Shown here: positions 1,455 through 20,300 of the stretch, one piece after another
Layout of the letters: each line of letters begins with the position of its first letter
How positions within the stretch are numbered: the stretch's first letter is position 1
Source of the DNA: Delftia acidovorans NBRC 14950
GTDB taxonomy: Bacteria > Pseudomonadota > Gammaproteobacteria > Burkholderiales > Burkholderiaceae_C
DNA length: 32,000 nt
Assembly (NCBI RefSeq): GCF_001598795.1
Contig: NZ_BCZP01000002.1
Location: 360,001-392,000 of the forward strand
Direction: 5' to 3'
Notes under the pieces: model-generated
Told to the model about the DNA's origin: nothing
What the model saw: only the letters and a program-made list of their open reading frames with translations
The model's database searches: none
Position numbers and translations under genes: made by a program

Positions 1455-1537
1455 GGCCCGATGGCGCGGACTTTGCGGTTCGCGTTACCATCGCGCATGG
1501 CCCGGGCGTGGTCTGACGGCCTGGGCCGGTTTGCTGC

Positions 1538-1566
1538 AAGCCGCCTTTGGGCGGCTTTTGTTTTTT
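1538..1566 (+). terminator. rho-independent terminator after argB
   Basis: Stem AAGCCGCC (1538-1545), loop TTTG, stem GGCGGCTT (1550-1557), then TTGTTTTTT. Confidence 0.7.
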
Positions 1567-1575
1567 AGGTTTGAT

Positions 1576-2295: not shown

Positions 2296-2332
2296 TGCGG
2301 ACATGGCGCATGGCCCCAGGCGCTGACCGCCC

Positions 2333-3820: not shown

Positions 3821-3902
3821 CGGTTGCGCTCATGGGGACAGCTTTGTGCGGAGTTGCCGCCGAGGGCTGTGAGAGAATTACTTACAAATAGTTGATCTGC
3901 TT

Positions 3903-4598
3903 ATGTCCGAGTCTGAAGTCCTGTCGCCTTTATCCGCTCCTGGCGCTGATGTCGTTTCCGACGAAGCCGCCTCCGCTTCCGCCCCTACGCCTGCGCGCAA
4001 ACGCCCCAAACCCGGGGAGCGGCGCGAGCAGATCCTGCAGGCGCTTGCGGCCATGCTGGAGAAGCCGGGCGCAGAACGCATCACCACGGCAGCGCTGGCA
4101 GCCCATCTGGGCGTCAGCGAGGCAGCCCTGTACCGCCACTTCGCCAGCAAGGCCCAGATGTTCGAAGGACTGATCGAGTTCATCGAGCAATCCGTCTTCA
4201 CGCTCGTGCAGCAGATCGTCGGGCGGGACGTGCCGGAGGAAGAGCGGCCCGCAGTGGATGGAATGCGCCAGGCCAGCCGCGTGATCTCCCTGGTGTTGCA
4301 GTTCGGCGAGCGCAACCCCGGCATGGTGCGCGTCATGGTGGGCGATGCTATCGTCTTCGAGCACGAGCGCCTGCAGGCCCGTATGAACCAGTTCTTCGAC
4401 CGCATCGAATCCACGCTGCGCCAGTGCCTGCGCCCCGCCGCCGGTGCGCTGGGCTCTTCCGCCCCGACGGTCGATGCACAGGTGGCCGCCAGCGTGCTGA
4501 CATCGTTCGCGCTGGGCCGCCTGCAGCGCTACGCGCGCTCGGGTTTCCGCCGCCTGCCGACCGAGCATCTGGAAGCCAGCCTGGCCTTGATGGTCTGA
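3903..4598 (+). CDS. slmA: nucleoid occlusion factor SlmA (TetR fold)
   Basis: Long colinear similarity to my recollection of E. coli SlmA: REQILQALAAMLE, RITTAALAAHLGVSEAALYRHF, MFEGLIEFIE, FGERNPG. Confidence 0.85.
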   Translation: MSESEVLSPLSAPGADVVSDEAASASAPTPARKRPKPGERREQILQALAAMLEKPGAERITTAALAAHLGVSEAALYRHFASKAQMFEGLIEFIEQSVFTLVQQIVGRDVPEEERPAVDGMRQASRVISLVLQFGERNPGMVRVMVGDAIVFEHERLQARMNQFFDRIESTLRQCLRPAAGALGSSAPTVDAQVAASVLTSFALGRLQRYARSGFRRLPTEHLEASLALMV

Positions 4599-4636
4599 AC
4601 ATGGCCCAGCGGACCCCAGGGTCCGCTTTGCAGCAA

Positions 4637-4666
4637 AGCCACCCGCTTGCGCCGGTGGCTTTTTTT
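4637..4666. terminator. rho-independent, possibly bidirectional, terminator between slmA and the Mor-like gene
   Basis: Stem AGCCACC (4637-4643), 10-nt loop, stem GGTGGCT (4654-4660), then a T-run to 4666. A second hairpin (GCGGACC/GGTCCGC) lies at 4609-4626. Confidence 0.7.
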
Positions 4667-4701
4667 GCGACCAGGGCCTTGCTTCGTCGCGGTGGCTGTG
4701 C

Positions 4702-5214
4702 TCAGCCCACGAGATTGCGCCGTCGCCTGGCCGGTGCTGTCACGCCCAGCGCCGCAACGATGCGCCCCACCTGGCCTTCCGTAATCCCATGCTCGGCAGC
4801 CAGTTGCCGGGCCGTTTTGTCCGTGGCGTAGTCTGCAGCGATGCGCTGGTTGCGCAGTGCCTGCAGTGCACGCGCTGCCCTGGGCAGCTGGAAGTGGGGC
4901 AGGCCGCCATACTCACGGGCGAGCTGGAGCAAGGCTGGCACGCCGATGGTGGCCGCATAGGGATGCTCGGCTGTGACCTTGTCCGGTGTGGGAATGTAGA
5001 TGCGCAGTCCACCCCAGCGTTGCACCAGGGCCATCGTGGACTGCAGCCCGATCAGGCGCTCGAAGTCCTGCAGCAGGGGCGGAAGCAGATCGCTGCAAGT
5101 GCCATGATGCGGGTCCGAGGCAGCTGCCACGGGCGTGTGCATGCCGATGGTGGGGGGCAGGGCAGCAGGCCGAAAGCCCTGGAAGACAGGTGCCGGATGG
5201 TGTTCGGAATGCAT
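4702..5214 (-). CDS. Mor-family (phage Mu middle-operon-regulator-like) transcriptional activator
   Basis: The C-terminal half resembles Mu Mor. WGGLRIYIPT parallels Mor GGGQVYIPR, followed by RNQRIAADY and an HTH (ARQLAAEHGITEGQVGRIV). I chose the ATG at 5214 because the longer ORF-track start at 5310 would overlap the operators and the repressor start. Confidence 0.6.
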   Translation of the reverse strand: MHSEHHPAPVFQGFRPAALPPTIGMHTPVAAASDPHHGTCSDLLPPLLQDFERLIGLQSTMALVQRWGGLRIYIPTPDKVTAEHPYAATIGVPALLQLAREYGGLPHFQLPRAARALQALRNQRIAADYATDKTARQLAAEHGITEGQVGRIVAALGVTAPARRRRNLVG

Positions 5215-5231
5215 TTTGGCTGTACGCTCTT

Positions 5232-5286
5232 GGTTCAAAAGGAAACGGTTCAATTTGAACCATATTCTTGGTCCATAACGAACCAA
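5232..5286. promoter_or_regulatory. operator cluster of the divergent switch
   Basis: GGTTCAA occurs at 5232-5238. A perfect 7-1-7 palindrome GGTTCAATTTGAACC lies at 5247-5261. An imperfect 7-5-7 inverted repeat TTGGTCC-ATAAC-GAACCAA lies at 5268-5286. That gives five GGTTC/GAACC-type cores in 55 bp of an AT-richer gap. Confidence 0.55.
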
Positions 5287-5975
5287 TGTCAAGATTCGCC
5301 ATGCCTGCAAAACCTGTGACTGATGCGCTTACATCCAACGTTGATGAGGTACTGGCGCGCATGGCTGAAGCCTTGGGACCCGACTGGATGGCGGGCATGG
5401 AGGTTCAGCCTGAAACGGTGCGGACCTGGCGCAAGCGCGGGGAAGTGCCAGCACGGCAACTGCTGCGGGCCTCGCAGCGAGCGGGCCGGCCGCTGGAGTA
5501 TTTCAACGGCACGGGTGCAGCGAAGCCTGGGGCCCGGCATGGTGGGGCGGCCGAGGACGAGTTCACGCAGATCGAGATGCTCGATGCGCACGTCAGCGCA
5601 GGGCATGGGGCCGTCAACGGCCCCGACGAGGTGATAGGTCGCTTCGCCTTCCGTTCGTCCTGGCTGCAGTCCAAAGGACTGGGCAGGCACAACGCCAAGA
5701 TCGTGCGTGCCCGTGGAAGATCCATGGCGGACCGCATCAACGATGGCGACATCCTGCTGGTCAACACCTCGGTCGATACGCTGACCCAGGATGGTGTCTA
5801 TGTGATCGAGCTGGAGGGTGAGAACTACGTCAAGCTGCTGGAGCGCGACTTCAGCACGGGCGGTGTGCGTATCGTCAGCTACAACCCCGCCTATCCGCCC
5901 CAGGTTCTGGAAGGCGAAGCGGCCAACCGGCTGCGCATCTGCGGCCGGGTCCTCTGGCACGGCGGAGAACTCTAG
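5286..5975 (+). CDS. phage CI-type repressor with a LexA-like S24 autopeptidase domain
   Basis: The N-terminus has a CI-repressor-type motif (VRTWRKRGEVPARQLL). A candidate Ala-Gly cleavage site lies in VSAGHG. The catalytic Ser is in GRSMADR and the Lys in NYVKLLER. The start is uncertain: TTG 5268, ATG 5286 or ATG 5301. Confidence 0.85.
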   Translation: MSRFAMPAKPVTDALTSNVDEVLARMAEALGPDWMAGMEVQPETVRTWRKRGEVPARQLLRASQRAGRPLEYFNGTGAAKPGARHGGAAEDEFTQIEMLDAHVSAGHGAVNGPDEVIGRFAFRSSWLQSKGLGRHNAKIVRARGRSMADRINDGDILLVNTSVDTLTQDGVYVIELEGENYVKLLERDFSTGGVRIVSYNPAYPPQVLEGEAANRLRICGRVLWHGGEL

Positions 5976-6214
5976 CCCCCGGGCCGCGCCGCCCAGCATC
6001 GCTCCAAAGACTTTGCCGCAGGCCTGAGGCCAGCTTGCGCGCTTCCGTCTTCTCCCAGCCTTTCTCGTCCTCCTCTTTCGTGCGTCCGTGCCTGCCCGAG
6101 CGGCAGGACGTTTGCGCTTGCCTGGCCGTTGGGGTGTGTCGGGCCAAGGCACATGTGCCTGGCATCCAGATCCGCTGCGCCTGAGAAGGCGCGCTCCTGT
6201 GGACGCTGAAATCG

Positions 6215-6245
6215 GGCCTGCATATGCAGGCCTTATTCATTTTTG
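6215..6245 (+). terminator. perfect 18-bp palindrome followed by a T-rich tract; terminator-like or a protein-binding site
   Basis: GGCCTGCATATGCAGGCC (6215-6232) is followed by TTATTCATTTTT. Confidence 0.35.
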
Positions 6246-6311
6246 CCTGCCTCGGCACAGTCACTCCATCGCAACGACGCATCTTTTTCTGCGTCCCCCA
6301 CGGAGTGACCC

Positions 6312-6419
6312 ATGTACGCCATCGCACAACTGTTCCTGCTCTTTGCCGCTCATCTGCGGCCCATCGTGGCCGAGGCTGCGGCGAGCGTGGCGGCGGCCTT
6401 TCCGGTGCTGCGCTCATGA
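6312..6419 (+). CDS. 35-aa hydrophobic micro-ORF, first cistron of the tail operon (hypothetical)
   Basis: GGAG at 6302-6305 lies 6 nt upstream of ATG 6312. The product is MYAIAQLFLLFAAHLRPIVAEAAASVAAAFPVLRS. Its TGA (6417-6419) overlaps the next ATG (6416-6418). It falls below the ORF-track length cutoff. Confidence 0.3.
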   Translation: MYAIAQLFLLFAAHLRPIVAEAAASVAAAFPVLRS

Positions 6420-6901
6420 ATGCACTGGCCCAGCATCGCAACGCCATCGTGTCCGTCCTGGCCTCGGTGCCGCAGATCGGCGTTGTGCAGGACCGCGAAC
6501 GCCATGCCGCCAGCGATGCAGAGCTGGCCGCCCTGTTCACGTACACGCCGCCTGCAGCAGGCACGGCCCATGTCCGCGGTTGGTGGCTGCGCAGAAGCAG
6601 CACGGCCGAGCACGGCAGCAGCACGGCCCGCACGGTGAGCGTGCACCAGTGGACGCTGCATGGCTACCTGGCCATCGCCGACACCCAGGCCGGCGAACTG
6701 CTGCTGGACGACCTGGTCGAGCAGTTCCGCGCCCTGGTGCGAGCCGATCCGACCCTGGGCGGCGCGTGCCAGCCCGGTCCCCTGGCAGGCAGCGACGACA
6801 GCACCGATGGCGTGCAGGTCGTGCGAGCCGAGCCTGTGGATTTCGCGGGAGTGCGTTGCCACTCCGTTGTCCTGCAACTCAGAACCTGGAGCTACCTGTG
6901 A
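6416..6901 (+). CDS. putative tail terminator / tail completion protein (gpU-position protein)
   Basis: A 161-aa ORF sits immediately upstream of the tube gene. Its size and position match siphovirus tail terminators. The function is assigned from gene order only, with no motif I can name. I preferred ATG 6416 over the 6224 start. Confidence 0.45.
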   Translation: MNALAQHRNAIVSVLASVPQIGVVQDRERHAASDAELAALFTYTPPAAGTAHVRGWWLRRSSTAEHGSSTARTVSVHQWTLHGYLAIADTQAGELLLDDLVEQFRALVRADPTLGGACQPGPLAGSDDSTDGVQVVRAEPVDFAGVRCHSVVLQLRTWSYL

Positions 6902-7031
6902 CCTGCACACCACCAAACCGGGCCTAGACCGGACACCTCGCACCTTTCCCGCAACCACTGTGGCCCGCGGCGCTGGAGAACGGCGCCCAAGGCCGCGAAA
7001 CCTCTCCTCATCTCTTCAAAGGATTTTCCAA

Positions 7032-7958
7032 ATGGCAGCAAAGATCATGCGCAAGATGGCCCTCCTGGCCCTGGTTGAAACCGTTGTCGGCACGGCCGTC
7101 GTACCGCTGGCGGCCAATGCCATGCTGGTCAGCGACGTGACCCTCACCCCCATCGAGGGCGACGTGGTCGAGCGCAACAACATCCGTCCCTTCTTCGGCT
7201 CCAGCGGCAGCACCCTGGTCACCGAATACCAGAAGGTGGCGTTCTCCGTGGAATTCGCGGGTGTGGCCGCGGCAGGCGAGCGTCCCGGCGTGACCGACCT
7301 GTTGCGTGCGTGTGCCGCCAGCGCCAGCACCGAGACTGGCGTGAAGACGGTCTTCGCTCCCGTGACCGACGGCATCCAGAGCGTGACCATCTACGGCAAC
7401 GTGGACGGCACCCTCTACAAGATGCATGGCGCACGCGGCGAGGTGGAGTTCAGCACCGATGCCAAGGCCATTCCCAAGTGGAAGTTCGAGTTCACGGGCT
7501 CCTTTGTCCCCGCAGTGGATGAGGCCCTGCCGGCTGTGGACTACAGCGACTTCGTCGCTCCCCTGGGCGTCAACAAGACCAACACCCAACTGACCCTCGA
7601 CGGCCTGGCGGTGGCCTGCAGCGCCTTCAGCTTCAAGTGCGGCAACCAGGTGGTCAAGCGCGATCTGATGAACGTGGACACCGTGGAAATCACGGACCGC
7701 AAGTCCACGGGCAGCGTCACCTTCGAGAACACCAGCGTGGCCACCAAGGACTGGATCGGCCTGGCGCGTGCCAGCGCCATCGTGCCCGTCACGCTCAAGC
7801 ACGGCCCGGGCGCCACCAACACCGTCAGTTTCAAGAGCGCGCGCGCCCAGATCGGCAAGCCGACCTACAGCGACAGCGATGGCGTGCAGATGATCACCAT
7901 CCCCCTGTCGTTCATTCCCTCCGACGCGGGCAACGACGAGTGGTCCATCGAGATCTGA
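7032..7958 (+). CDS. major tail (tube) protein
   Basis: A 308-aa beta-rich protein sits directly upstream of the G/GT chaperone pair, with AAGGA upstream of ATG 7032. The ORF-track start at 6660 overlaps the previous gene and gives an Arg/Pro-rich extension, so I rejected it. Confidence 0.7.
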   Translation: MAAKIMRKMALLALVETVVGTAVVPLAANAMLVSDVTLTPIEGDVVERNNIRPFFGSSGSTLVTEYQKVAFSVEFAGVAAAGERPGVTDLLRACAASASTETGVKTVFAPVTDGIQSVTIYGNVDGTLYKMHGARGEVEFSTDAKAIPKWKFEFTGSFVPAVDEALPAVDYSDFVAPLGVNKTNTQLTLDGLAVACSAFSFKCGNQVVKRDLMNVDTVEITDRKSTGSVTFENTSVATKDWIGLARASAIVPVTLKHGPGATNTVSFKSARAQIGKPTYSDSDGVQMITIPLSFIPSDAGNDEWSIEI

Positions 7959-8001
7959 CGCCTCACCTCCCTGCCTGACAACTACACATCCAAGGATCAC
8001 C

Positions 8002-8457
8002 ATGGCCGTCAAGATTTCCGGGCTCAAGCCCACCATCTCCGTTCCCGCAACGCTGTACCTGCCCGTCGATGAGGGCAGGTTCGGAGCCCATCACTTTGCC
8101 GTCGTGTTCAAGCGCCTGGGCAAGGCGCGGCGTGACGAGATCAATGAACTCATCGTCGTCGGCAAGCCCGCCACGCAGCCCGATGGCTCGCAGGAGGTAC
8201 GGCGCATGACCATCCCTGAACTGCTCGACGAAGTGGTTGTGGGCTGGGAGGGGATGCTGGGCGACGAAGGAACACCTGTGCCCTACAGCCGCGACGAGCG
8301 CCTGGCGGCCGAGGAGTCCTACCCGGGACTGGAGCAGGCCATGGCCGTGGCCTGGTTCGACGGACTCAACGTGCACCAGCGGGATGCCGCCACAAAAAAC
8401 TCCGTGGCGCTGTCCGGCATCACCTCGGCCTCGACGGCGCAGACCGCTATCTCGTAG
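8002..8457 (+). CDS. tail assembly chaperone (gpG analogue)
   Basis: A 151-aa acidic protein lies between the tube and tape-measure genes. It contains an in-frame X_XXY_YYZ slippery heptamer near its 3' end. Confidence 0.75.
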   Translation: MAVKISGLKPTISVPATLYLPVDEGRFGAHHFAVVFKRLGKARRDEINELIVVGKPATQPDGSQEVRRMTIPELLDEVVVGWEGMLGDEGTPVPYSRDERLAAEESYPGLEQAMAVAWFDGLNVHQRDAATKNSVALSGITSASTAQTAIS

Positions 8458-8777
8458 ACGACGAGCTGCGCGCCCAGTGCGCGCAGATGGGGATCGACCC
8501 CGACCGGATGGTGCCCGGCGATCTGCAACGCCAGCACCCCGAGGACTACGAACTGTGGCCGGAGCATGCGATGGCCTGGAGCGTGTACCTCGGCTGCTCC
8601 ACCCAGTGGCGCAGGACGGCCACGCCCTGGGGCCATTGGCACTGGGACGGGCTGGACTACGCCGGGGCCGAGATCGTGATGCGCCGCTACGCGGTGCCCG
8701 CCGCGCAGCGCGGCGAGGTCTTCGCGCAGTTGCAGGTACTGGAGGCGCAGGCGCTGCGCCAGCTCAACCGGGGCTGA
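8002..8777 (+). CDS. tail assembly chaperone G-T fusion produced by programmed -1 frameshifting
   Basis: A -1 slip at 8394-8400 enters the frame of ORF 8487-8777. I translated that frame by hand from 8400 to 8487 and found no stop. The T part (WPEHAMAWSVYLGCSTQW...) resembles gpT-type segments; I recall the family as DUF1799 but have not verified this. Confidence 0.65.
8394..8400 (+). promoter_or_regulatory. -1 programmed ribosomal frameshift slippery heptamer A_AAA_AAC
   Basis: The zero-frame codons are ACA AAA AAC (T K N), so the heptamer fits X_XXY_YYZ exactly. Confidence 0.65.
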
Positions 8778-8847
8778 GGCATAGGGGCCTCGGCTCCGGC
8801 CTTTCAAGACAAACACAAGCGGTCAAGCATACCGAACAGAGATCAGC

Positions 8848-11800
8848 ATGAGTACAGCGGTCAAAAGCATAGGCATCGCCGAGACGCCCAGCCTGAGCGA
8901 GCTGCGTGCGCAGAATGCCCAGTTCTCCCAGGAGCTCGACAAACTCCACGGCAAGCTGCAGCAGGCGTATGCCGGCATGTCGCAGTTCGCAGGTGCCTCA
9001 ACGGACACGGCACTTGTGTCGGCGCGTGCCAGCGTCGATATCGAGAGCCTGTCTACTTCCATGGGCAAGATTGCCGGCCGCGCCAATGCCCTGCTGGAGG
9101 TGGCGGGTTCGGCGGCCAAGGTGGGAGAGGCCCTCTACACGGCCAGTGCCCAGACAGAGAATCTGCGTACGCGGCTGGACCTTGCCACCGGCGGCAAGGG
9201 CGCGCAGGAACTGGCCTATGTCACGGCCCTGGCCGATCGGCTGGGCCTGCAGCTCAATGCCACCGGCCAGGCCTACGCCGACTTCGCCACCAAGGCGCGT
9301 GGTACGGCGCTGGAAGGTGCGCAGGTGCAGACCATCTTCACGGGGATTGCCTCGGCCAACGCGGCCATGGGCCTTTCCGTGGAGCAGGGCAATGCCTCGT
9401 TGGCAGCCGTACTCGACCTGATGGGCAAGGGGACGATAGGCGCGTCGGACTTCAGCGACAAACTGGGACATATCCCGGATGCGGCGCTGGTCGGCGCTCA
9501 GGCACTGGGTGTGACACAGGAGCGGTTCTCCCAGATGCTGCAGACCGGCGAGGTCGTGACGCAGGACTTTCTACCCCGTTTCTCGCAGGCGCTGCAAAGC
9601 TCCCTGGGAGAGGGGACGGACAAGGCGGCGGACAGGCTGGATGCCGGCACCCAACGCATGGCCAACGCCTGGGACAAGCTCAAGTCCGCCGTGGGAGATT
9701 CCGGCATTAGCCAGATGATCTCCTTTGGCATGAACACAGCGGCCAACGACATGAACGCCTTTTCGGAGTCCATGTCGCGCGCGCGTGACAACGGGTCGGG
9801 CTTCCTGGGCCAGATCAGCAGCGGGCTGGGAAACATCGCCGGGCGCGCGGTGGGCTTGCAATATGTCAGCACGGCCTTCCAGTCGAATGCGGAAAAGGCA
9901 GCCTATCTGGCCAAGGAGCTTCCGCGCGCCAGGGCTGAATTGGAGATGCTGCAGGCCAAGGGGGCAGCGACATCGCGCAATGTGTGGGTGCGCACGGCCC
10001 ATGACGATGCCCAGCGCCTGGTCGAAAAATTGCAGCAGGTGCAGCGCGAATTGATGGCGGCACAGGGTCAGCGCAATGCAGGCGGCGGCCGCGGGTTCAT
10101 CAACCCGCCGCTGGTGGGACAGCCACAGCCGCAGGAGCAAAGCAAGAAAACCGACGCGCCTGCGCAGAAGAAAGAGCCGCCTGCGGTACCCCGCACCGTC
10201 AGCTACGCGCCACCGGCCGTGCCAGCCAGAACGCAGCAGGACAATGAGGAGCTCAAGCGCGATCAGGAACTGCAGAAAAGGCAGCAGGAGGTGGCGCAGC
10301 TCGTCAAGGAACACCAGACCAAGGCCGAACTGGCAGAAAAGAACCTGGACCTCGCCCGGCAGGAGACCCTCGCGATCGGTCTGACTGGCGATGCGTTGGG
10401 ACAGCTGCGGCAGGAGCAGGTCGAAAAGACCATCGCGGAACTGCAAGACAACGCAGCCAAGCAAGAGAGCGTCCGATGCTCGAAGGACGTCGCCGAGGCC
10501 GTGGGCAAAGAGGCCGATGCCACGCGCGAACTCGCCAGGGTCAAAGGCTATAACGACTCGGCACGCATGGTGGCCGAGTACGCGCAAAGCGTGAAGGAGG
10601 CCAACGAGGCGACCCAGTTCGAGCAGTCCCTGGCCGCTATGTCGCAGCGCGATCGGGAGATTGCCCTGGCGCAGTACAGGATCGAGATAGATCTCCAGAA
10701 AAAGCTGCAGGACATCGCGGCCAAGAATCCCTCGGATGCCGCTGCCGCCCAGAAGCTCAAGGAAGATGCCACGGCCGCTGCGAACCAGGCCAAGGCCAAT
10801 GTCGCCGAGCGCACCCGCATGCAGGAAACCCAGAAGTCCGTTGACCAGATGGACGAGATGTTCCGCAAGGGCTTCACGGACATGCTGGCCAACGGTACGG
10901 AAGGCTGGCGCACGTTCACCAAGAACCTGAGCGCGACGTTCAAGGCCACGGTCGCCGACGAGATGTACAAGGCGTTCGCACGGCCATTCCTTGTTCCTGT
11001 GATTGCTCAGTTGCAAGGATTCATCGGCAACCTCTTCGGTAAAACAGGGGCTCCGGGAACTTCTGGACCTAGTGGCTCGACAGATGCGGGCTTGGGGGGG
11101 GGACTGACGGACTGGTCAACCTGGGGTAGCTCAGCTCAAGAGTTCCTCAGTGACTCCGCATTCAAACTCGTCGTGAACGGCTGGGACAAGGCCGGTGGAG
11201 CGATGCTTGACCTGAGCCGGACCGTGGGTAGGTTTGACTCTTGGTTGAAAGACATCCCTGGATTTAAAGGTGGGCTGGGGTCTGCCGCAGGCTATTTGGG
11301 AAGTCTCTATAGCCTGTCTCAGGGGCAATATGGCGCAGCTGTCGGCCAAGCCGTGGGGACGTGGATTCTTCCCGGAATCGGAACGATGGTCGGCAGCTTT
11401 CTGGGTGGAGCTCTGGACAAGGCCTTCGGCTCCCGCGGCCCCAACCACGGCGGCGCCGCCTACAGCACCGCTGGCGTCGGCAACGACAAGGCCGCCGAAC
11501 AGCTGTTCGGCCGTGCGGCCGGAGACTGGTATGACGATCTGACGCAGCGCCACAGCGATGCCGTCGAAAAGCAGCTCAAGACCAGCCTGGACGGCCTGGC
11601 CTCGGTCTATGGGTCCCTCAGCAAATACGCGACGGGTAGCGCGCGCGGCATCGACCTGGTCGGCGGCTTTGCCGTCAACGGCCGGTACAGCGACGAGGAC
11701 GCCTACGGCTACGCCAAGATCATCGACAAGACGACCGGCATGATCCTGGCCGGCTTCGAAAACCGCTCGCTGGGCAACAACCCGGAAGAGGCCTACAAGG

Positions 11801-13839
11801 CCTTCCTGGGCCAGACCGGTTCCCTGCTGGTGTCCGAACTCAAGAAGGCGGACCTGCCCAGCTGGATGCGCACCACGCTGGACTCGCTGGGCGAAGCACC
11901 CAATGTCGAGGCGTTGCAGGCCGCCTTCCAGACCATCGACCTGATCGGCCGCTCCTTCGAGGAACTGGGCAAGAAGATCACGGGCTTTGCCGACCTGACC
12001 GACCTGGCCTTCGAGTCCCTGATCAAGGCTTCGGGCGGCATCGAGGCGCTGAATGCCAACGCGGGCAGCTTCTACCAGAACTTCTACAGCGAGGATGAGC
12101 GTAAGACCATCGCCAAGCGCGAGGTGGGCAGCAAGCTCAAGGACCTGGGCGTGGACATCGACCTGGATGCCGACGACGCCCAGGCCCGGTTCCGCAAGCT
12201 GGTGGAGGACAAGCTCAAGGCAGCCAACTCCGAGGAGGCAAATGCCAAGGTATTGAAGGACGCCATCTCCAAGGTCCAGGGCACGCAAGGCCTCAAGGAC
12301 ATGGCCAAGACTGGCGCTTTCAAGGACTGGGCCAGCACCACCCTGGGAGAAGGTTCGGGCGATATCGGAAAACTCGCGGCCGATCTCGAGAACCTGGCGA
12401 ACACCAGCACGTCGCTGGCCGACTTCACTGCCGGTATGGACAAGCTGATCGGCAATATCGGCGGCACCGGCAAGTCTTCGGCCGAGACCGCTGCCGAGCT
12501 GCTCAAGCTCAACGACACGTTCAAGGCCGTTACCAAGACATCCGAGGATGCTGCGGCGGCTTCGGCCAAACAGGCCGAGGAAGCCAAGCGCAAGCAGGAG
12601 GAGCAGGCGCAAGAGGCGAAGAAGAAGAACGAGGCCGATACGGATGCGGCGTGGAGCCTGCTGCAGCGTTCCGTCGATGCGGAGCGCACCCTGGCTCAGG
12701 CGCGTCTGGATGCCGCCCGCGAGCAGGTCGAGCTTGCACGTGGCGTGGTGGACCTGGCGCGCGGTGCCGCACGTGATCTCTGGGGTGAGGTCGATACGGT
12801 TGCCGCAATGGATGCATCGTTGGCCGGACGGTTCATCCAGGATGCAGTCTCGGCTGTCCGCAATACCGGCTACCTGCCAGAGCAAAAAGCACTTGACGAA
12901 GCCATCACTGCGGCGCGCGATGGCCTTTCGCGCACGGCCTACGCCAGTCGTATCGATGAGGAGCGGGCAAGGCGAGCGCTGGCCGCAGATCTGGAACAAC
13001 TCGGTGAGAAGGGGCAGGAGCAGTTGTCAGTGGCCGAACAGCAATTGGCGGCCGAAGAGACTTCCTTGGCGCGGTTGGATGAACTGATCCTTTCCTCCAA
13101 GCAGCAACTGGACGCTGCTCGTGGCATAGACATCAGCGTGCGCAGCGTCGATGAAGCGGTGCGTGATTTCCAGGCAAAGCTGCTGGCGGAGAAGAGCGGC
13201 GGAAAGTCCGGCCCTGGGGGAGGCGATGTGGCCGTACTGGGGCCTGGGGGGGCGCCTTCGCCTGGAGCGGGCCAGGATGCGCGTTACCGCCGTGCACGCA
13301 CGGATGGTTCGGGTGGCACCTGGTATGAGCCAGTCACTGACAAGGATCGTGTAGCGCATCTGGACAAGTACAACGATGGCTATCACGCCTTCGACGGAAC
13401 CGGGGACGCCAGCGGACTGAACCAATGGATCAAGGACAACAAGCTGACCGCCGCAGATCTGGCGGAGCTTTCCGGTCTTTATGAATCCGATTGGCGCAGG
13501 TGGTTCGAAGGCGCTGGCATTCCGGCCTTCGCGAAAGGTGGCCTGCACGGTGGTGGCTTGCGCATGGTGGGTGAAAGTGGTTGGGAGATCGAAGCCACCG
13601 GACCCGCGCGCCTTTGGAACCAGAGCCAACTGGGACAGGCGCTGATCGGTGGTGCGGATGCTGCTGGCACTCCCTTGCTTTTGGCCATCGAGCGCCTGAT
13701 TCGCGCTATCGAACAGCAGGATCCTGCCTTGCAGGACATCAAACAGCATGTGCGCGATACGGCCGAGGTGCTGTTGCGTGTAACGCGTGGCGGCGTGGCC
13801 ATGCAATCGGCTGGCGGCAGCGCCGTATTGGAGCTCTGA
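8848..13839 (+). CDS. tail tape measure protein (1663 aa)
   Basis: The N-terminal region resembles a tape-measure domain (LELAYVTALADRLGL..., GASDFSDKLGHIP). It has long coiled-coil Ala/Glu/Lys/Gln segments and a Gly-rich hydrophobic patch. The C-terminal motif FAKGGLHGGGLRMVGESGWEIE is typical of tape measures. Confidence 0.9.
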   Translation: MSTAVKSIGIAETPSLSELRAQNAQFSQELDKLHGKLQQAYAGMSQFAGASTDTALVSARASVDIESLSTSMGKIAGRANALLEVAGSAAKVGEALYTASAQTENLRTRLDLATGGKGAQELAYVTALADRLGLQLNATGQAYADFATKARGTALEGAQVQTIFTGIASANAAMGLSVEQGNASLAAVLDLMGKGTIGASDFSDKLGHIPDAALVGAQALGVTQERFSQMLQTGEVVTQDFLPRFSQALQSSLGEGTDKAADRLDAGTQRMANAWDKLKSAVGDSGISQMISFGMNTAANDMNAFSESMSRARDNGSGFLGQISSGLGNIAGRAVGLQYVSTAFQSNAEKAAYLAKELPRARAELEMLQAKGAATSRNVWVRTAHDDAQRLVEKLQQVQRELMAAQGQRNAGGGRGFINPPLVGQPQPQEQSKKTDAPAQKKEPPAVPRTVSYAPPAVPARTQQDNEELKRDQELQKRQQEVAQLVKEHQTKAELAEKNLDLARQETLAIGLTGDALGQLRQEQVEKTIAELQDNAAKQESVRCSKDVAEAVGKEADATRELARVKGYNDSARMVAEYAQSVKEANEATQFEQSLAAMSQRDREIALAQYRIEIDLQKKLQDIAAKNPSDAAAAQKLKEDATAAANQAKANVAERTRMQETQKSVDQMDEMFRKGFTDMLANGTEGWRTFTKNLSATFKATVADEMYKAFARPFLVPVIAQLQGFIGNLFGKTGAPGTSGPSGSTDAGLGGGLTDWSTWGSSAQEFLSDSAFKLVVNGWDKAGGAMLDLSRTVGRFDSWLKDIPGFKGGLGSAAGYLGSLYSLSQGQYGAAVGQAVGTWILPGIGTMVGSFLGGALDKAFGSRGPNHGGAAYSTAGVGNDKAAEQLFGRAAGDWYDDLTQRHSDAVEKQLKTSLDGLASVYGSLSKYATGSARGIDLVGGFAVNGRYSDEDAYGYAKIIDKTTGMILAGFENRSLGNNPEEAYKAFLGQTGSLLVSELKKADLPSWMRTTLDSLGEAPNVEALQAAFQTIDLIGRSFEELGKKITGFADLTDLAFESLIKASGGIEALNANAGSFYQNFYSEDERKTIAKREVGSKLKDLGVDIDLDADDAQARFRKLVEDKLKAANSEEANAKVLKDAISKVQGTQGLKDMAKTGAFKDWASTTLGEGSGDIGKLAADLENLANTSTSLADFTAGMDKLIGNIGGTGKSSAETAAELLKLNDTFKAVTKTSEDAAAASAKQAEEAKRKQEEQAQEAKKKNEADTDAAWSLLQRSVDAERTLAQARLDAAREQVELARGVVDLARGAARDLWGEVDTVAAMDASLAGRFIQDAVSAVRNTGYLPEQKALDEAITAARDGLSRTAYASRIDEERARRALAADLEQLGEKGQEQLSVAEQQLAAEETSLARLDELILSSKQQLDAARGIDISVRSVDEAVRDFQAKLLAEKSGGKSGPGGGDVAVLGPGGAPSPGAGQDARYRRARTDGSGGTWYEPVTDKDRVAHLDKYNDGYHAFDGTGDASGLNQWIKDNKLTAADLAELSGLYESDWRRWFEGAGIPAFAKGGLHGGGLRMVGESGWEIEATGPARLWNQSQLGQALIGGADAAGTPLLLAIERLIRAIEQQDPALQDIKQHVRDTAEVLLRVTRGGVAMQSAGGSAVLEL

Positions 13840-14546
13840 TGCCAACGATCGATCAACTCGAGCAGGCGGCATCGTTGATGCCGGGCGACCTGACACTGCT
13901 GCGCCGGACGGGCCGCACGTATGCCATCGCTGCGGCGGCCATCGCCGGCCCGCAGGGACCGAAGGGTGATCCGGGCGCTGCGGGAGCAACAGGTCCGCGT
14001 GGGGCGACAGGTCCTCAAGGCGAGGCCGGCGTGCAAGGCCTGCAGGGGCAGCAAGGACTTCAGGGACCTGCCGGGCCCAAGGGGGATGTGGGTGCTCAGG
14101 GACTGCAGGGGCCGCAGGGAGCAACAGGACCCCAAGGTCTACCGGGCACGGCAGGTGCCAAGGGAGATGCCGGCGTTCCCGGACCCCAGGGCCCGGTGGC
14201 CATTCCAACCCTGGCGTGGGGTCGCGAATTGGCAAGAGCCGGCTATCTGCGCGAGGCCAATGGTGGCGTGCTTCAGCTCGGGGGGCGCTATGCCATCTGG
14301 ACGGGTGGCGGCGCGATCACCATGCATCTGCCCAAGAAGAGCGAAGTTGCGCTCGGCGATTTCGTCGAGTTCACGAATCTTCACCTCACCTGGCCTGCGT
14401 CCGCGCAGTTCACTGTTGCCCGGCAGGAGTCGGGCACCTACATCCATGGCCACGACAGCCATCTCGTCTGCGACGTGGCCGTGGGTGGCTTTCGGCTGGT
14501 GTGCGTCTGGAAGGACGGCACCAACATCTGGTGGAACATCGTTTGA
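13839..14546 (+). CDS. collagen-like tail fibre / tip protein
   Basis: ATG 13839 overlaps the tape-measure TGA (13837-13839). The protein has a 36-aa N-terminal head, 28 uninterrupted Gly-X-Y triplets and an approximately 115-aa globular C-terminus. Confidence 0.85.
   Translation: MPTIDQLEQAASLMPGDLTLLRRTGRTYAIAAAAIAGPQGPKGDPGAAGATGPRGATGPQGEAGVQGLQGQQGLQGPAGPKGDVGAQGLQGPQGATGPQGLPGTAGAKGDAGVPGPQGPVAIPTLAWGRELARAGYLREANGGVLQLGGRYAIWTGGGAITMHLPKKSEVALGDFVEFTNLHLTWPASAQFTVARQESGTYIHGHDSHLVCDVAVGGFRLVCVWKDGTNIWWNIV
13947..14198 (+). repeat. collagen triple-helix-type Gly-X-Y repeat (28 triplets)
   Basis: GPQGPKGDPGAAGATGPRGATGPQGEAGVQGLQGQQGLQGPAGPKGDVGAQGLQGPQGATGPQGLPGTAGAKGDAGVPGPQGPV, counted by hand. 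Confidence 0.9.
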
Positions 14547-14553
14547 GGAAACC

Positions 14554-15471
14554 ATGATAGTTGTCCCCCCCATGCCCATCACGGCGACTGGCCTGATCGA
14601 CTGCAGTGTTCCGGAGGTGGATGCCTCTGCAGGCGAGAAAGTGTGGTCGCCAACAACCCACTATGAACGTGGCGCGCAGGTTCTGCGGCTGGAGACGCAG
14701 ATGCGCTATGAGAACAGCATTGCGGGAGTCGATGCGACGCCTCCCGAGCAGGACTCCAGGCGCTGGATGCCCCTGCGTCCCAGCAATCGCTGGGCCATGT
14801 TCCGCCATCTCACGAACGATGCCACCGAAGCCCCTGCGACGTTGAGCTTCACCCTGCGCCCAGGCAAGCGCTTCGACACCCTGTTCATGCGGGGGGTACA
14901 GGCCGACAAGGTGGTGATGCAGGTCAAGTCCGCGGGCGTCGTCGTCGCCCAACGCGAGCGCAAGCTGAACGCGCGCGCCACGCGCACTTGGTCAGGCTAT
15001 TTCTTTGGCGAATTTCCGCTGATTCCCACGGTTCTGATATCGGACCTGCCTCCATTCACCGGAGCGGAAATCGTGGTCACGCTGGTGCGTGCAGGTGGCC
15101 GCCCGGTACGTGTGGAGCATGCGGCACTAGGCATGAAGAGCTGGATTGGCGATGCGGAATGGGCGCCGCGCAATGACGCGCTGAATTTCTCGGTGGTCGA
15201 TCGCGACAAGTACGGCGGCATCAAGTTGCAGCCTGTGCGTAGCGTTCCCACGCTCTCGGTCAAGGTCCGCATCCCCAAGGACAACGTCGATACCGCACTG
15301 CGCCTGCGCAGGGAACTGGATGCGGCCCCGGCACTGTGGGCTGCACTGGATGACGACACCACCGATGGATATGCCGAAGCCGCGTCGATCTTCGGCCCTT
15401 ACCGGCGTTTTCCCATCGACCTCAACAACGCGAAAGACTCGTACAGCCAGATTGATTTGGAGTCCATGTAA
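14554..15471 (+). CDS. distal tail / baseplate-position protein of unknown family
   Basis: GAGGAA lies upstream of ATG 14554, and the ORF encodes 305 aa. The N-terminal motif is WSPTTHYERGAQV...Y...PPEQDSRRWMPLRPSNRWAMF. It is coding-like and translationally coupled to the next ORF. The function is inferred from position only. Confidence 0.55.
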   Translation: MIVVPPMPITATGLIDCSVPEVDASAGEKVWSPTTHYERGAQVLRLETQMRYENSIAGVDATPPEQDSRRWMPLRPSNRWAMFRHLTNDATEAPATLSFTLRPGKRFDTLFMRGVQADKVVMQVKSAGVVVAQRERKLNARATRTWSGYFFGEFPLIPTVLISDLPPFTGAEIVVTLVRAGGRPVRVEHAALGMKSWIGDAEWAPRNDALNFSVVDRDKYGGIKLQPVRSVPTLSVKVRIPKDNVDTALRLRRELDAAPALWAALDDDTTDGYAEAASIFGPYRRFPIDLNNAKDSYSQIDLESM

Positions 15472-16151
15472 TGCCTATTGTCAAACCACCTCTGATTGCA
15501 CAACTTCCCGTCGCTCCCTATGTCGGAGATCCCGATTTCGACGCGCATGCCGATGCCCTGCTGGGGCAGCTCGAATCGCATCGCCAGCAAATCAACGCCA
15601 CGAACGATGCGACCTACACCAACGCCTTGCATGTGGAGGAGCGAGCCGGATCAGCCGAGGGCGCTGCGCGCGGTGCCTCGCAGTCCGAGGCCGCCGCCGC
15701 GCAAAGCGCCATAGCTGCTGCGGCAGCCGCTGGTGCCGTGAAATGGACTGCGGGTACAGCCTATGCGGAGGGCGCCGTGGTCTGGAGTCCGGCCAATGGC
15801 CTCAACTACCGCCGCAAGCTTGCCGGCAGCGGTGGCAATGACCCCAGCTCCGACGCCGCCAACTGGTGGGTGATGGGGGCGCCCATGTCGGCCCCCATCC
15901 AACGCATCAGCTCCGATACGCTGGCGCAGACACGCATGCATTACGTGATCGAAGCGGCACTCACGCTCACTTTGCCGGCAGCGCCGGCACTGAGCGATGT
16001 GGTCCAGATCACGGATCTGTCCGATTCGATGGCCGTGGCCATCCATCCCAACGGCGCCCTCATTCGCGGAGCGAGCGGCGTGATGACTCTCGATGTTCTG
16101 CGGGCAGCCGGCTCGCTTGTGTATTCCGGCTCAGCGAAAGGATGGGTGTAA
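15471..16151 (+). CDS. tail fibre-like protein
   Basis: ATG 15471 overlaps the preceding TAA (TAATG). It has an Ala-rich helical stretch (EAAAAQSAIAAAAAAG) and a W-x-x-G-T-x-Y-x-x-G motif. Its C-terminal domain is similar to that of the collagen-like protein. Confidence 0.55.
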   Translation: MPIVKPPLIAQLPVAPYVGDPDFDAHADALLGQLESHRQQINATNDATYTNALHVEERAGSAEGAARGASQSEAAAAQSAIAAAAAAGAVKWTAGTAYAEGAVVWSPANGLNYRRKLAGSGGNDPSSDAANWWVMGAPMSAPIQRISSDTLAQTRMHYVIEAALTLTLPAAPALSDVVQITDLSDSMAVAIHPNGALIRGASGVMTLDVLRAAGSLVYSGSAKGWV

Positions 16152-16154
16152 GAA

Positions 16155-16457
16155 ATGCCGAATTTTTCTCAGCTTTTTGGGGGTGGGAGTGTGGTCAAAG
16201 GTGTTCAGCGAGGGGTTACAGAATCGCAGTCTGGTGCTTATGCAAATTACACAATAAAGGTGCCTATTTCTGCTGTTAATCCAGCAAAGACATTAGTAAA
16301 TATATTGACTCAGTACAGCAGTGGTGCAGAGGGATGGGAAACAACAATTTCGGCACGGCTTCTAAATGCGACAACCTTGGAGATATACGCTATACGGTCG
16401 AGTCCAGGTGGCATGTTTGGTCCCGCTATCTCGTGGGAGGTTATCGAGTTTGGTTAA
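16155..16457 (+). CDS. hypothetical 100-aa protein, last gene of the tail operon, on a low-GC cassette
   Basis: The ATG lies 3 nt after the previous stop. The product is MPNFSQLFGGGSVVKGVQRG...ISWEVIEFG. The segment is markedly AT-richer than the rest of the operon. Confidence 0.5.
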   Translation: MPNFSQLFGGGSVVKGVQRGVTESQSGAYANYTIKVPISAVNPAKTLVNILTQYSSGAEGWETTISARLLNATTLEIYAIRSSPGGMFGPAISWEVIEFG

Positions 16458-16514
16458 CAAGGTATGCTAATGAATTAAAGCGTGCATATTGGAATAAATG
16501 GCATTGGATATCTG

Positions 16515-16555
16515 ATGCGGCAGGCCTTTGAAAACATTGAACTGCCGCATATAAT
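16515..16555 (+). promoter_or_regulatory. near-consensus sigma70 promoter (TTGAAA-N16-TATAAT) bracketed by a 9-bp inverted repeat
   Basis: The -35 element TTGAAA is at 16528-16533 and the -10 element TATAAT at 16550-16555. The inverted repeat is ATGCGGCAG (16515-16523) and CTGCCGCAT (16542-16550). The same hairpin could instead end the tail operon, or a minus-strand ORF that stops at 16555. Confidence 0.35.
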
Positions 16556-16740
16556 CATTCGTCAGGCATATCATGAGATTGAACGGTATAGCGTTTGGAT
16601 GTTATCGGGTTCGGGGTCTTTGAGACTGCACCGAAGAACCCGAGATCATCATCACCAGCTTCACAGTAGATCGTGAGGCTTTGTGAATACACCCACTTCA
16701 CCGATTCGACGGTGCCTGTGGGTGCCACGCTGGTCCTATC

Positions 16741-16809
16741 TGCCGAACTGCCGAACTGCCGAACTGCCGAACTGCCGAACTGCCGAACTGCCGAACTGCC
16801 GAACTGCCG
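16741..16809. repeat. perfect tandem octanucleotide repeat (TGCCGAAC) x 8 plus a partial copy
   Basis: Counted by hand: eight complete TGCCGAAC units span 16741-16804, followed by TGCCG. Confidence 0.95.
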
Positions 16810-17010
16810 GCAGGCGCGCAGGTCTTGGCGAAGGAGGGCGGCTTCCGACTGCCCCTCCGGTTGTGCGATGGCTGCGAGCGCGTGGTGCTGGCCTCCATTG
16901 CCGAGGTCTCTGTCCACTTCGAGGACAGTCGGGTCTGGGAAGTGACCGAAACCATGGTCAATTCCTGCGCTTCAAGGGCTTCAAGATATTTGCCGTGGGA
17001 CTTGTCCTGA
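16810..17010 (+). other. coding-like segment without its own start codon (frame 1, stop TGA 17008-17010)
   Basis: My hand count over 50 codons (16810-16959) gives GC1 about 70%, GC2 about 44% and GC3 about 84%. That is the pattern of real genes in this genome. This frame is open back to 16687 but has no ATG, GTG or TTG before the repeat. Confidence 0.3.
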
Positions 17011-17026
17011 GGCGTGACATACAACC

Positions 17027-17050
17027 AAGCCGGCTCCTGCCGGCTTTTTT
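17027..17050 (+). terminator. rho-independent terminator
   Basis: Stem AAGCCGGC (17027-17034), loop TCCT, stem GCCGGCTT (17039-17046), with the T-run extending to 17050. Confidence 0.75.
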
Positions 17051-17120
17051 GCGCCTGCCCGCTGGCTAGGTGTTTTCCCCCGCATGTCTTCGCCGCGACA
17101 AGCTTTCCATGCAAAATAGC

Positions 17121-17132
17121 ACGAACGTTCGT
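17121..17132. promoter_or_regulatory. probable TetR operator (perfect 12-bp palindrome ACGAACGTTCGT)
   Basis: It lies 18 nt upstream of the TetR start codon, in an AT-richer promoter region. Confidence 0.45.
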
Positions 17133-17149
17133 TTTAACAAGAATTTCGC

Positions 17150-17857
17150 ATGTCCAGCGTTTCCGCCCCACGCCGCACCACCCGTTTGACCGCTGACGCC
17201 ACGGCCGATCCCAAGGCGGGCTCTTCCGTGCACGAAGCCGCTGCGCCCGCGCCGCGCCGCGCGCTGCACAAGGGGCAGCAGACCAAGGCCACCATTGTGG
17301 AGGCTGCCCTCAACCTGGCCACGCACATCGGGCTTGAGGGCCTGTCCATCGGCGCTCTGGCCGAGCTGACGGGCATGAGCAAGTCGGGCGTGTTCGCGCA
17401 TTTTGGCTCGCGCGAGGAGCTGCAGATTTCCGTGGTGCATGAGTACCACGACCGTTTCGAGCAGGAAGTGTTCTTTCCCGCGCTTCAGGCGCCGCGCGGC
17501 GTGGCGCGTCTGCGGGCGCTGTTCGACAACTGGATGAAGCGCACGTCGATCGAGCTGGACTCGGGCTGCATCTATATCAGCGGCGCCGTGGAGTTTGACG
17601 ACCGCACGGGGCCGGTGCGCGATGCGCTGACGGCCTCGGTCCAGACTTGGCACGCAGCCATGCGCCGCACCATCGTGCAGTGCCGCGAAAGCGGCGACCT
17701 GCGTGCCGACCTGGACGAGAACCAGCTGCTGTTCGAGATCCACGGCCTGATCCTGGCCCTGCATTACGAGGCGCGCTTCCTGCGCAATGAAGGCTCGATG
17801 CAGCGCGCCATCGACGGCTTCGAGAGCATTCTGGCGCGCTACGCCAGCCCGACCTGA
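17150..17857 (+). CDS. TetR-family transcriptional regulator, likely of the downstream fatty-acid degradation genes
   Basis: TetR HTH: IVEAALNLATHIGLEGLSIGALAELTGMSKSGVFAHFGSREEL. Confidence 0.85.
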   Translation: MSSVSAPRRTTRLTADATADPKAGSSVHEAAAPAPRRALHKGQQTKATIVEAALNLATHIGLEGLSIGALAELTGMSKSGVFAHFGSREELQISVVHEYHDRFEQEVFFPALQAPRGVARLRALFDNWMKRTSIELDSGCIYISGAVEFDDRTGPVRDALTASVQTWHAAMRRTIVQCRESGDLRADLDENQLLFEIHGLILALHYEARFLRNEGSMQRAIDGFESILARYASPT

Positions 17858-17919
17858 TTTTTCAGTTTCACCGTTTCCACCGCATCCACTGCAAACCCCG
17901 CCAACACAGGAGAAGACAA

Positions 17920-19725: not shown

Positions 19726-19805
19726 ACGGCTTCACTCCAACATGGGAGCGCGGGCTGTGCGCATCAGCGTGGCCTGCGCGCCTTTCTAGGCGAAAGGGGT
19801 TTGAA

Positions 19806-20246: not shown

Positions 20247-20300
20247 ACCATTCCGGAGGGCGGCCGCAGCGGCCGCCTTCCTCCCACTTGTGGAACATCC

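Follow-up and report, generated by a model that had tools for sequence, protein, structure and literature searches.

The window analyzed here, a 32,000-nucleotide stretch of Delftia acidovorans NBRC 14950 (contig NZ_BCZP01000002.1, positions 360,001 to 392,000 of the forward strand), carries a 12.4-kb island (4666-17064) that we judge, with somewhat more confidence than doubt, to be a domesticated remnant of a Mu-like siphophage that produces functional free flexible tails in the manner of F-type tailocins. The island is a probable SOS-inducible system of this F-type tailocin-like kind, and probably a phage-tail weapon of an undescribed sort. Its exact limits were set by alignment with empty-site alleles, in which a 30-bp filler takes its place between the slmA terminator and the region upstream of a TetR gene. 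All coordinates are positions within the window, and L-numbers denote the related loci compared, about 60 of which were obtained from a one-genome-per-species scan and two viral-contig scans. From the regulatory switch to the last tail gene, the island contains the following features:

4702-5214, minus strand: Mor-family late activator, 170 amino acids (PF08765, E = 1.4e-9; phrog_836 'late transcriptional activator', E = 6e-23)
5215-5360, no strand: divergent control region (promoter scan and direct sequence reading)
5286-5975, plus strand: CI-type repressor with an S24 C-terminal domain (PF00717, E = 9e-20, 71 bits; phrog_4, phrog_6201)
6215-6268, plus strand: late-operon control module, 57 nt (dyad/hairpin GGCCTGCATATGCAGGCC at 6215-6232, T-rich tract, -10-like CACAGT at 6256-6261)
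6312-6419, plus strand: leader open reading frame (ORF) p35, 35 codons, N-terminal remnant of the head-operon gene p82 and a deletion scar
6416-6901, plus strand: predicted tail terminator protein g161, 161 amino acids (AlphaFold2 (AF2) model with a predicted local distance difference test score (pLDDT) of 88.5, compared with the PDB by Foldseek)
7032-7958, plus strand: tail tube protein (PF18906, Phage_tube_2; phrog_290)
8002-8457 and 8002-8777, plus strand: tail chaperones G and GT (phrog_569, phrog_313)
8848-13839, plus strand: tape measure protein, 1663 amino acids (TMP_3, phrog_25966)
13839-14546, plus strand: collagen-like tail fibre (PF01391 and many tail-fibre PHROGs)
14554-15471, plus strand: distal tail protein p305 (phrog_6278, E = 2e-42)
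15471-16151, plus strand: distal tail protein p226 (weak PHROG matches)
16155-16457, plus strand: p100, variable distal ORF of low guanine-plus-cytosine (GC) content, no family match

An earlier note on this DNA had described these ORFs as Mor-like and CI/S24 regulators followed by a siphovirus tail module without head or lysis genes. Pfam, PHROGs and AF2/Foldseek bore out the ORFs, their coordinates and these assignments. Scans with Pfam, PHROGs and NCBIfam detected no head, packaging, integrase, transposase, replication or lysis family in 4666-17064, and tblastn with the MuA, MuB, Ner, TerL, portal, MuF and capsid proteins of relatives found nothing in the window. A target-site duplication and Mu-type ends were sought at the island borders and none was found, the ends of the intact relatives being undefinable from the loci compared. 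The island is therefore not a functional Mu-like prophage, since MuA/MuB, phage ends and head genes were not found.

Within the tail set, terminator, tube, G/GT and tape-measure genes were identified, together with four distal proteins to which no role as distal tail protein (Dit), tail hub (Tal) or receptor-binding protein could be assigned. We take g161 to be the tail terminator because its AF2 model matches lambda gpU (3fzb; E = 1e-4, template modeling score 0.5-0.66) and other terminators, the matches being T5 p142, the R2 pyocin collar and Listeria LmaB. No sequence family was found for g161, and sequence and profile searches of solved structures found nothing; it is the first structural gene kept in every head-less relative. 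The tube gene had been identified correctly in the earlier note, but with an implied start one base off from the ATG at 7032. Its product is 36% identical to that of the RcapMu gene at the tube position, which is annotated 'hypothetical', and the RcWaterboi homologue is annotated 'tail tube protein'. The chaperone genes contain the intact slippery site that had been claimed, A AAA AAC at 8394-8400, with the -1 frame open to 8777 and a resulting GT product of 258 amino acids. This heptamer is kept at the same position in 13 of the 13 related loci checked, and the T part of relatives carries DUF1799. As a rule of thumb, tail length is roughly 0.15 nm per tape-measure residue, and the 1663-residue tape measure predicts a tail of about 250 nm.

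The collagen-like fibre comprises 28 G-X-Y triplets (residues 37-120) and a C-terminal domain of 115 amino acids. Homologues of p305 directly follow the tape measure in Caulobacter phage DMCA, in Synechococcus phages, in the head-bearing locus L022 and also in L016, L018 and L019, in which no head genes were detected. For p305, no solved structure was matched by sequence or profile; its AF2 model, built from 9 sequences, was poor (pLDDT 56) and gave weak matches to carbohydrate-binding-like sandwiches, which we set aside as a role assignment because the model is poor and the matches are generic. Homologues of p226 come after p305 in related prophages, and p100, with a GC content of 0.42-0.46, is only 50% identical in L002 (D. 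tsuruhatensis NBRC 16741). The start/stop overlaps reported earlier are real: ATGA at 6416-6419, where the p35 stop overlaps the g161 start, TGATG at 13837-13841 and TAATG at 15469-15473.

Ancestry and deletion scars

Sequence comparison indicates that the island descends from a Mu-like transposable siphophage family of the Comamonadaceae. The cultured relatives of the tube, at 25-39% identity, are Mu-like transposable siphophages (RcapMu, RcWaterboi) and Ralstonia and cyanobacterial siphophages. Intact Comamonadaceae prophages have an early side, divergent from CI, that runs from Ner through MuA, MuB and a DNA-binding protein to Mor. Their late side runs from CI through lysozyme, an Rz-like gene, p89, DUF1804, TerL, portal, MuF, p82, a capsid/protease fusion, h224 and h166, and then continues with the terminator gene, a small ORF, tube, G/GT, tape measure and distal genes. 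RcapMu and related siphophages, as well as the intact loci L024, L036, L037 and L042, have homologous Mor, CI, terminator, tube, G/GT and tape-measure genes and share the late-promoter module and slip site of the island; unlike the island, they have MuA/MuB, a lysis cassette, terminase, portal, MuF, the capsid-protease fusion, neck genes and the small ORF between terminator and tube.

Compared with this intact layout, the island lacks two blocks, one extending from Ner through the genes before Mor and the other from lysozyme through h166. CI stands beside the tail genes because these two deletions took out everything between. The earlier note had counted a dedicated switch close to the tail operon in favour of domestication. 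The arrangement is not novel but is left over from the native switch of the ancestral phage: intact relatives already have CI co-oriented upstream of the late genes and Mor at the end of a divergent early operon. An origin of the Mor(-)/CI(+) layout by inversion of a Mu early region, considered on the basis of L003 and RcapMu, was rejected because the divergent layout is native to the intact relatives.

Each deletion left a scar, namely a Ner'-Mor fusion and the p82' leader ORF (p35), and both keep function, in that the early promoter became joined to Mor and the late promoter, Shine-Dalgarno sequence and start codon of p82 became joined to the terminator gene. In the first scar, 5201-5214 is homologous to the first codons of a Ner-like gene (MHSEH in the window, MHPEQ in intact phages) and 4732-5095 to the Mor gene of intact phages, and the 105 bp up to the Ner-like part have no counterpart. 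Mor is thus made up of Ner start codons, a 35-residue linker and a Mor core (residues 42-170; PF08765 at 38.4 bits, cutoff 24.9), a fusion which implies that the start codon of Ner now serves for Mor and that the early promoter lies immediately in front of it. In the second, p35 has its start codon, promoter and Shine-Dalgarno sequence in common with p82, and its segment IVAEAAASV aligns with LTAAEAAKRV of intact phages. A leader ORF with the same ATGA overlap is found in L008, L003 and the Variovorax cluster described below, with no conservation of the peptide sequence. As the overlap is kept while the peptide differs, selection seems to act on the translational coupling and not on the peptide itself.

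The earlier note had set against domestication a picture in which the tail genes of close relatives are the same but contiguous with head, packaging and lysis genes, and the locus shows a recent scar. Head-joined tails do exist, the tube being 90% identical to that of an intact Delftia acidovorans prophage and the terminator 68%, and so do scars, but these are old rather than recent, since they are common to separate lineages at a synonymous divergence (dS) of about 0.5.

A third loss concerns the small ORF between terminator and tube, which is found in all intact relatives and is missing from every head-less cluster; its product may act in head-tail joining. This protein has 60-105 amino acids and a conserved motif, H-x-G-x-GGLY...R.L.ERT (L024 9672-9989; also L005, L006, L007, L021, L022, L023 and L004). 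The gap between terminator and tube measures 64-146 bp in head-less clusters and 210-360 bp in intact relatives.

The switch and the late promoter

CI has a putative cleavage site, Ala105-Gly106, plus Ser146 (in GRSM) and Lys183 (in YVKLL) as the S24 Ser-Lys dyad. These residues are those expected of the LexA/CI S24 class of self-cleaving repressors, and self-cleavage is predicted. A possible alternative start lies at 5361. The N-terminus of CI (5286-5500) gave a sub-threshold match to NCBIfam 'carph-isopro' (33.3 bits, cutoff 38) instead of the classical HTH_3 that is present, unlike in the window, in the Variovorax CI. The divergent control region contains an early-promoter-like site on the minus strand, TTGACA (5292-5287) and AAGAAT (5269-5264) separated by 17 bp, with a scan score of 10/12. 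Two palindromes, GGTTCAATTTGAACC (5247-5261) and TTGGTCCATAACGAACCAA (5268-5286), overlap this promoter and are candidate operators. Every Delftia copy matches the control region of the window at 99% identity, as against 94% for L008 and 87% for three intact phages, L036, L037 and L039.

The late-operon module at 6215-6268, which the scan called terminator-like, recurs in 22 divergent copies with zero indels over its 57 nt. It stands before p82 in intact phages, before the terminator gene in head-less clusters, before the lysozyme gene, and before the tape-measure gene in Variovorax and L021. Over the copies, the stem is paired at 95.5% of its positions; two of the pairs have changed in a compensatory manner and some are G-U. 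Within the hexamer, the A and the T never vary. In the window, the CACAGT hexamer ends exactly 29 nt after the dyad, with a predicted transcription start near 6268, and in the 22 modules the dyad centre lies about 44-45 bp upstream of the predicted start. Activators of the Mor/C family, which have a Mor domain with a C-terminal helix-turn-helix, act in Mu on promoters with a dyad near -44 and a weak -35. By analogy with this geometry, the module is probably an activator-dependent promoter, whose hairpin may also act as a terminator shielding each late unit from upstream transcription, here from cI. Mor is the only candidate activator present, and the late promoter would depend on it.

In relatives, the lysozyme and tape-measure promoters have a -10-like hexamer that stops exactly 6 nt short of the ATG (L042 about 2817(-), L037 about 2018(-), L003 7323, L026 7761/11727, L009-L014 about 11720). 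Transcription is thus predicted to begin at the A of the ATG itself, and the late mRNAs of these relatives would be leaderless.

The arrangement suggests a simple chain of events, in which SOS induction, the action of Mor on 6215-6268, particle formation and killing are all predicted steps. CI would bind the palindromes in 5215-5360 and hold the early promoter off. Upon DNA damage, activated RecA would lead CI to cleave itself at Ala105-Gly106 via its S24 domain, and the early promoter, now joined directly to Mor, would fire. Mor would then switch on the sole retained late promoter at 6215-6268, just downstream of the hairpin that would stop read-through from cI, and a single transcript would encode the leader ORF, terminator, tube, G/GT, tape measure, collagen fibre, p305, p226 and p100. 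Non-contractile tails of about 250 nm would assemble, with the exchangeable distal genes setting the target range. Release would need lysis functions encoded elsewhere.

Maintenance of the cluster and rival explanations

Of the 17 Delftia-type loci, 16 have the reduced layout with every ORF intact, including tape-measure genes of 1553-1671 codons. The intact copies comprise the window, L002, L028-L035, L046, L049, L050, L051 and L055, with L033 ending within the tape-measure gene. All Delftia-type copies occupy the same slmA-tetR site, that of L002 being 97% identical to the window. Between the window and L008, a Burkholderiaceae metagenome genome with the same site and the same reduced layout, dS was 0.24-0.90, and the ratio of nonsynonymous to synonymous substitution rates (dN/dS) was 0.07-0.28 in the tail genes as compared with 0.04-0.10 in the flanking host genes. 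Values for individual genes were 0.02-0.19 for the tube, 0.08-0.10 for p226, 0.05-0.14 for CI and 0.16 for the Mor core; the 41-residue N-terminal extension of Mor reached 0.65, its frame being open in all copies. About 440 contigs named Delftia carry variants from the 90%-identity cluster of the tube protein.

Among copies, the stretch between Mor and the T part of GT forms a scaffold of 94-100% identity, which is followed by one of three unrelated types of tape-measure C-terminus and distal genes:

Distal type A: collagen fibre, p305, p226, p100
Distal type B: p311, p233, fibre of about 370 amino acids, p180
Distal type C: 313-amino-acid protein, 289-amino-acid protein

Each type is also found in related prophages. 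Of these, L022 (types A/B) and L024 (type C) were verified to have head genes upstream, whereas none were detected in L016, L018 or L019.

A second head-less cluster with the same Mor(-)/CI(+) switch is present in Variovorax (L009-L014, L026/L027; about 5000-20900), at one locus in six species between PBP1C/phytase-like host genes. Like the Delftia cluster, it has no head genes, a late promoter and ATGA-coupled leader before the terminator gene, a fixed locus and purifying selection (dN/dS 0.06-0.44). Unlike it, the Variovorax cluster retains lysozyme, a 216-amino-acid protein, p89 and three small early genes, and its tape-measure gene, which encodes 700 amino acids, has a separate promoter module. 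Its tip is lambda-like (Phage_Tail_Tip of 1392 amino acids, DUF6950). Its tube is only 68% identical to the Delftia tube, and the two clusters branch apart in the tube tree. These comparisons point to repeated reduction of the phage family to the same layout. A single origin of all head-less clusters was rejected as the simplest reading because of the split in the tube tree and the differing deletion junctions, recombination being possible. Ner remnants were seen in Variovorax L012 and L014.

Together, these results lend strong support to the claim of the earlier note that the cluster is domesticated rather than decaying: the dN/dS of 0.07-0.28 at a dS of about 0.5, the integrity of all but one of the 17 copies, the exchange of distal genes and the parallel in Variovorax all agree with it. 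Repeated reduction to one minimal layout, followed by long maintenance, would be what domestication predicts, unlike neutral decay.

Several observations weigh against this reading. Neither the window nor the 16 Delftia-type copies contain a holin, endolysin or spanin detectable with Pfam, PHROGs or tblastn, and no Dit or Tal is recognizable among the distal ORFs. The criteria for pyocin loci count holin and endolysin as essential for release (PMC13624779), and as no release function was found, the Delftia cluster can be called a 'tailocin' only tentatively. L008 is the only broken copy: a 700-bp deletion at its 7064-7067 (equivalent to window 7713-8416) removes the C-terminus of the tube together with G, so that the tube gene, cut at about codon 252, runs on into the T part of GT. 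As L008 is a metagenome-assembled genome, this deletion may be an assembly artefact. Half of the contexts with an identical SlmA (5 of 10) are empty (slmA, 183 bp, tetR), and both kinds of allele are present within one clade, with less than 1.4% divergence in the flanks. Empty slmA-tetR2 sites in very close strains, some with flanks less than 1% apart, mean that the island is accessory and dispensable. The comparison of the slmA-to-TetR interval suggested earlier yielded conservation and low dN/dS on the one hand and presence/absence variation on the other. Import from functional phages, which is possible because the exchange of distal sets shows that recombination occurs, could partly account for the low dN/dS. 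Relatives at the same locus resemble other stages of reduction (L003, L004), and a literature search returned no paper on tail particles in Delftia, Variovorax or the Comamonadaceae.

The empty alleles (L047, L048, L052, L053, L054; 10696-10879) carry the 30-bp filler CATGGGCACGCGGTGGAGGGGCTTCGGGTTG. A related filler is kept left of the island in L008 and is not found in occupied Delftia alleles, from which it follows that the empty allele is not a simple deletion of the present occupied one.

An alternative, which we consider unlikely, is that the island is a helper-dependent tail module: the Mor of a related intact Mu-like prophage would fire the late promoter and the lysis genes of that prophage would release the products. 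The resident tails would then serve as bacteriocins at the cost of the helper, join helper heads and change its host range, or spoil its assembly as a form of defence. This would explain a cluster without lysis genes in a genus that has intact relatives with a lysis cassette, and it fits the late-promoter module common to head-less clusters and intact phages, the 66-76% identity of Mor proteins, the closeness of the tube and terminator to those of the intact Delftia prophage and the exchange of distal sets with intact phages. However, the island has its own CI and Mor under purifying selection, which would be needless if a helper always activated it. The inner bases of the dyad in the window cluster are unlike those of intact phages, making cross-activation uncertain, and no known defence family was matched, a PADLOC scan for defence systems having returned zero matches.

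A related idea, to which we give only slight credence, is that of a lysis-less 'tail satellite'. This would be a minimal operon running from CI to Mor to a late promoter and tail genes, which related phages could activate in trans. Its products would be released via a helper or an unlinked lysis gene controlled by Mor, and it would weaponize the induction of the helper or disturb its tail assembly. In a weaker version of this idea, the Comamonadaceae would have repeatedly reduced one Mu-like family to the same layout, yielding a lineage of F-type tailocins that had gone unrecognized.

It is equally doubtful, in our view, that the island is an ordinary cryptic prophage remnant, shaped by successive deletions, kept if at all for superinfection immunity through CI, with tail genes that slowly decay. 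The deletion scars are clear, presence or absence of the island is polymorphic, lysis genes are missing, and the empty-site comparison leaves only 36 bp beyond the Mor stop codon, so that the phage must have lost its left end. Different stages of reduction are also seen among relatives at this locus, with transposase and lysis genes in L003, an inverted capsid block in L004 and the loss in L008. L003 (Comamonas metagenome genome; slmA site, 1500-9400) is head-less but has Ner, MuA, MuB, lysozyme, an Rz-like gene and p89, and is a plausible intermediate between an intact phage and the Delftia cluster. In L004 (Acidovorax metagenome genome; 2800-9200), the same tetR/acyl-CoA dehydrogenase flank is followed by p182, a Dam methylase and an inverted block of late promoter, p82, capsid and tail genes without TerL, portal and MuF; it is a relic that was rearranged in another way, apparently at the same locus. 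A search of the window for remnants of p182 and Dam found none. Neutral decay at a dS of about 0.5 would nevertheless have broken 10 kb of ORFs many times, yet nearly all copies are intact and every tail gene shows the low dN/dS given above. Moreover, both deletions leave exact promoter-gene fusions and translational coupling, the slip site has been kept, exchange has diversified the distal genes much as it does specificity genes, and the same end state was reached in Variovorax.

Known tail systems and the surroundings of the island

Among known systems, the F-type pyocins of Pseudomonas aeruginosa come closest in function to the domesticated tail cluster that we propose, in being head-less siphovirus tail clusters at a fixed site, with an S24 repressor and a dedicated activator, a constant scaffold with variable specificity genes and strain-dependent carriage. 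The differences listed in the earlier note also hold: a Mor-family activator instead of PrtN, no linked holin or endolysin, and no M-L-K-I-J tip. The island further differs in its Mu-like ancestry (RcapMu-type tube, PF18906), as opposed to a lambda-like one, and in its site, slmA-tetR as opposed to trpE-trpG. TattleTail identifies pyocin loci by prtN and prtR, the trpE-trpG site, and holin and endolysin (PMC13624779). The island is not a member of the Pseudomonas F-pyocin locus and is only its analogue.

Monocins, the F-type tailocins of Listeria monocytogenes, are non-contractile, tail-only particles, as those of the island would be, and the model of g161 matches LmaB, whose gene lies in the lma/monocin locus. 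Monocins differ in their Gram-positive host, in their origin from a TP901-1-like phage and in showing no sequence relationship to the island. The monocin locus has its own regulators and lysis genes. The R-type syringacin of Pseudomonas syringae is encoded at the tailocin site of Pseudomonas, alongside the regulators and lysis genes usual there. It is a contractile particle of the myovirus type, unlike the predicted product of the island. It was co-opted from a Mu-like phage (PMC4542187), whose tail genes were thus domesticated separately to give a head-less cluster.

A literature search on tailocins in Acidovorax and on Mor-controlled F-type tailocins found nothing relevant, and no report of a Mu-like origin for a non-contractile tailocin was found. 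To our knowledge, the F-type tailocins studied so far come from few lineages, the lambda-like pyocins and the TP901-like monocins. If our reading is true, the locus adds an F-type tailocin lineage derived from a Mu-like transposable siphophage, with a different regulatory logic in which a CI-repressed early promoter is joined to Mor and Mor drives a single late promoter. The Variovorax cluster with lysis genes and the Delftia cluster without them would offer a natural comparison of how tail particles exit cells, and intact phages, intermediates, the minimal cluster and empty alleles would form a stepwise series from phage to tail factory. The three interchangeable distal sets predict strain-specific killing spectra and a possible means of targeted control of Delftia, an opportunistic pathogen. 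The hairpin-promoter module, with the leaderless late transcripts predicted in relatives, would be a regulatory element of interest in its own right.

The borders of the island and the right-end sequence comprise three further features:

4643-4665, plus strand: slmA terminator (terminator-like hairpin at 4643-4658 and T-run; empty-site homology stops at 4665)
16458-17064, no strand: variable right-end segment (bidirectional terminator at 17027-17056; empty-site homology restarts at 17065)
16740-16809: tandem repeat CTGCCGAA, 8.8 perfect copies of an 8-bp unit (not a multiple of three), inside the right-end segment

The flanking terminators reported earlier were found as hairpins at 4643-4658 and 17027-17046. 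In L002, the right-end segment is exchanged for other sequence. A low-GC patch at 16155-16700 (0.42-0.50, about 0.65 elsewhere) spans p100 and the non-coding stretch after it and looks like a recent foreign insertion; its non-coding part contains a near-consensus promoter-like site, TTGAAA and TATAAT separated by 16 bp (16528-16555). The remainder of the window consists of host genes: an argB-like kinase, a two-component system, the SlmA-like TetR and, to the right of the island, the TetR gene, which precedes a beta-oxidation operon.

Among the intact relatives, L036 (2200-2900) and L037 (1940-2900) have morons, accessory ORFs rich in AT, in the interval from cI to the lysis promoter, a position analogous to that of rexAB in lambda. 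In L024, an intact Delftia acidovorans prophage, an insertion sequence element of the Transposase_mut family (19924-20927) lies directly after two distal tail genes.

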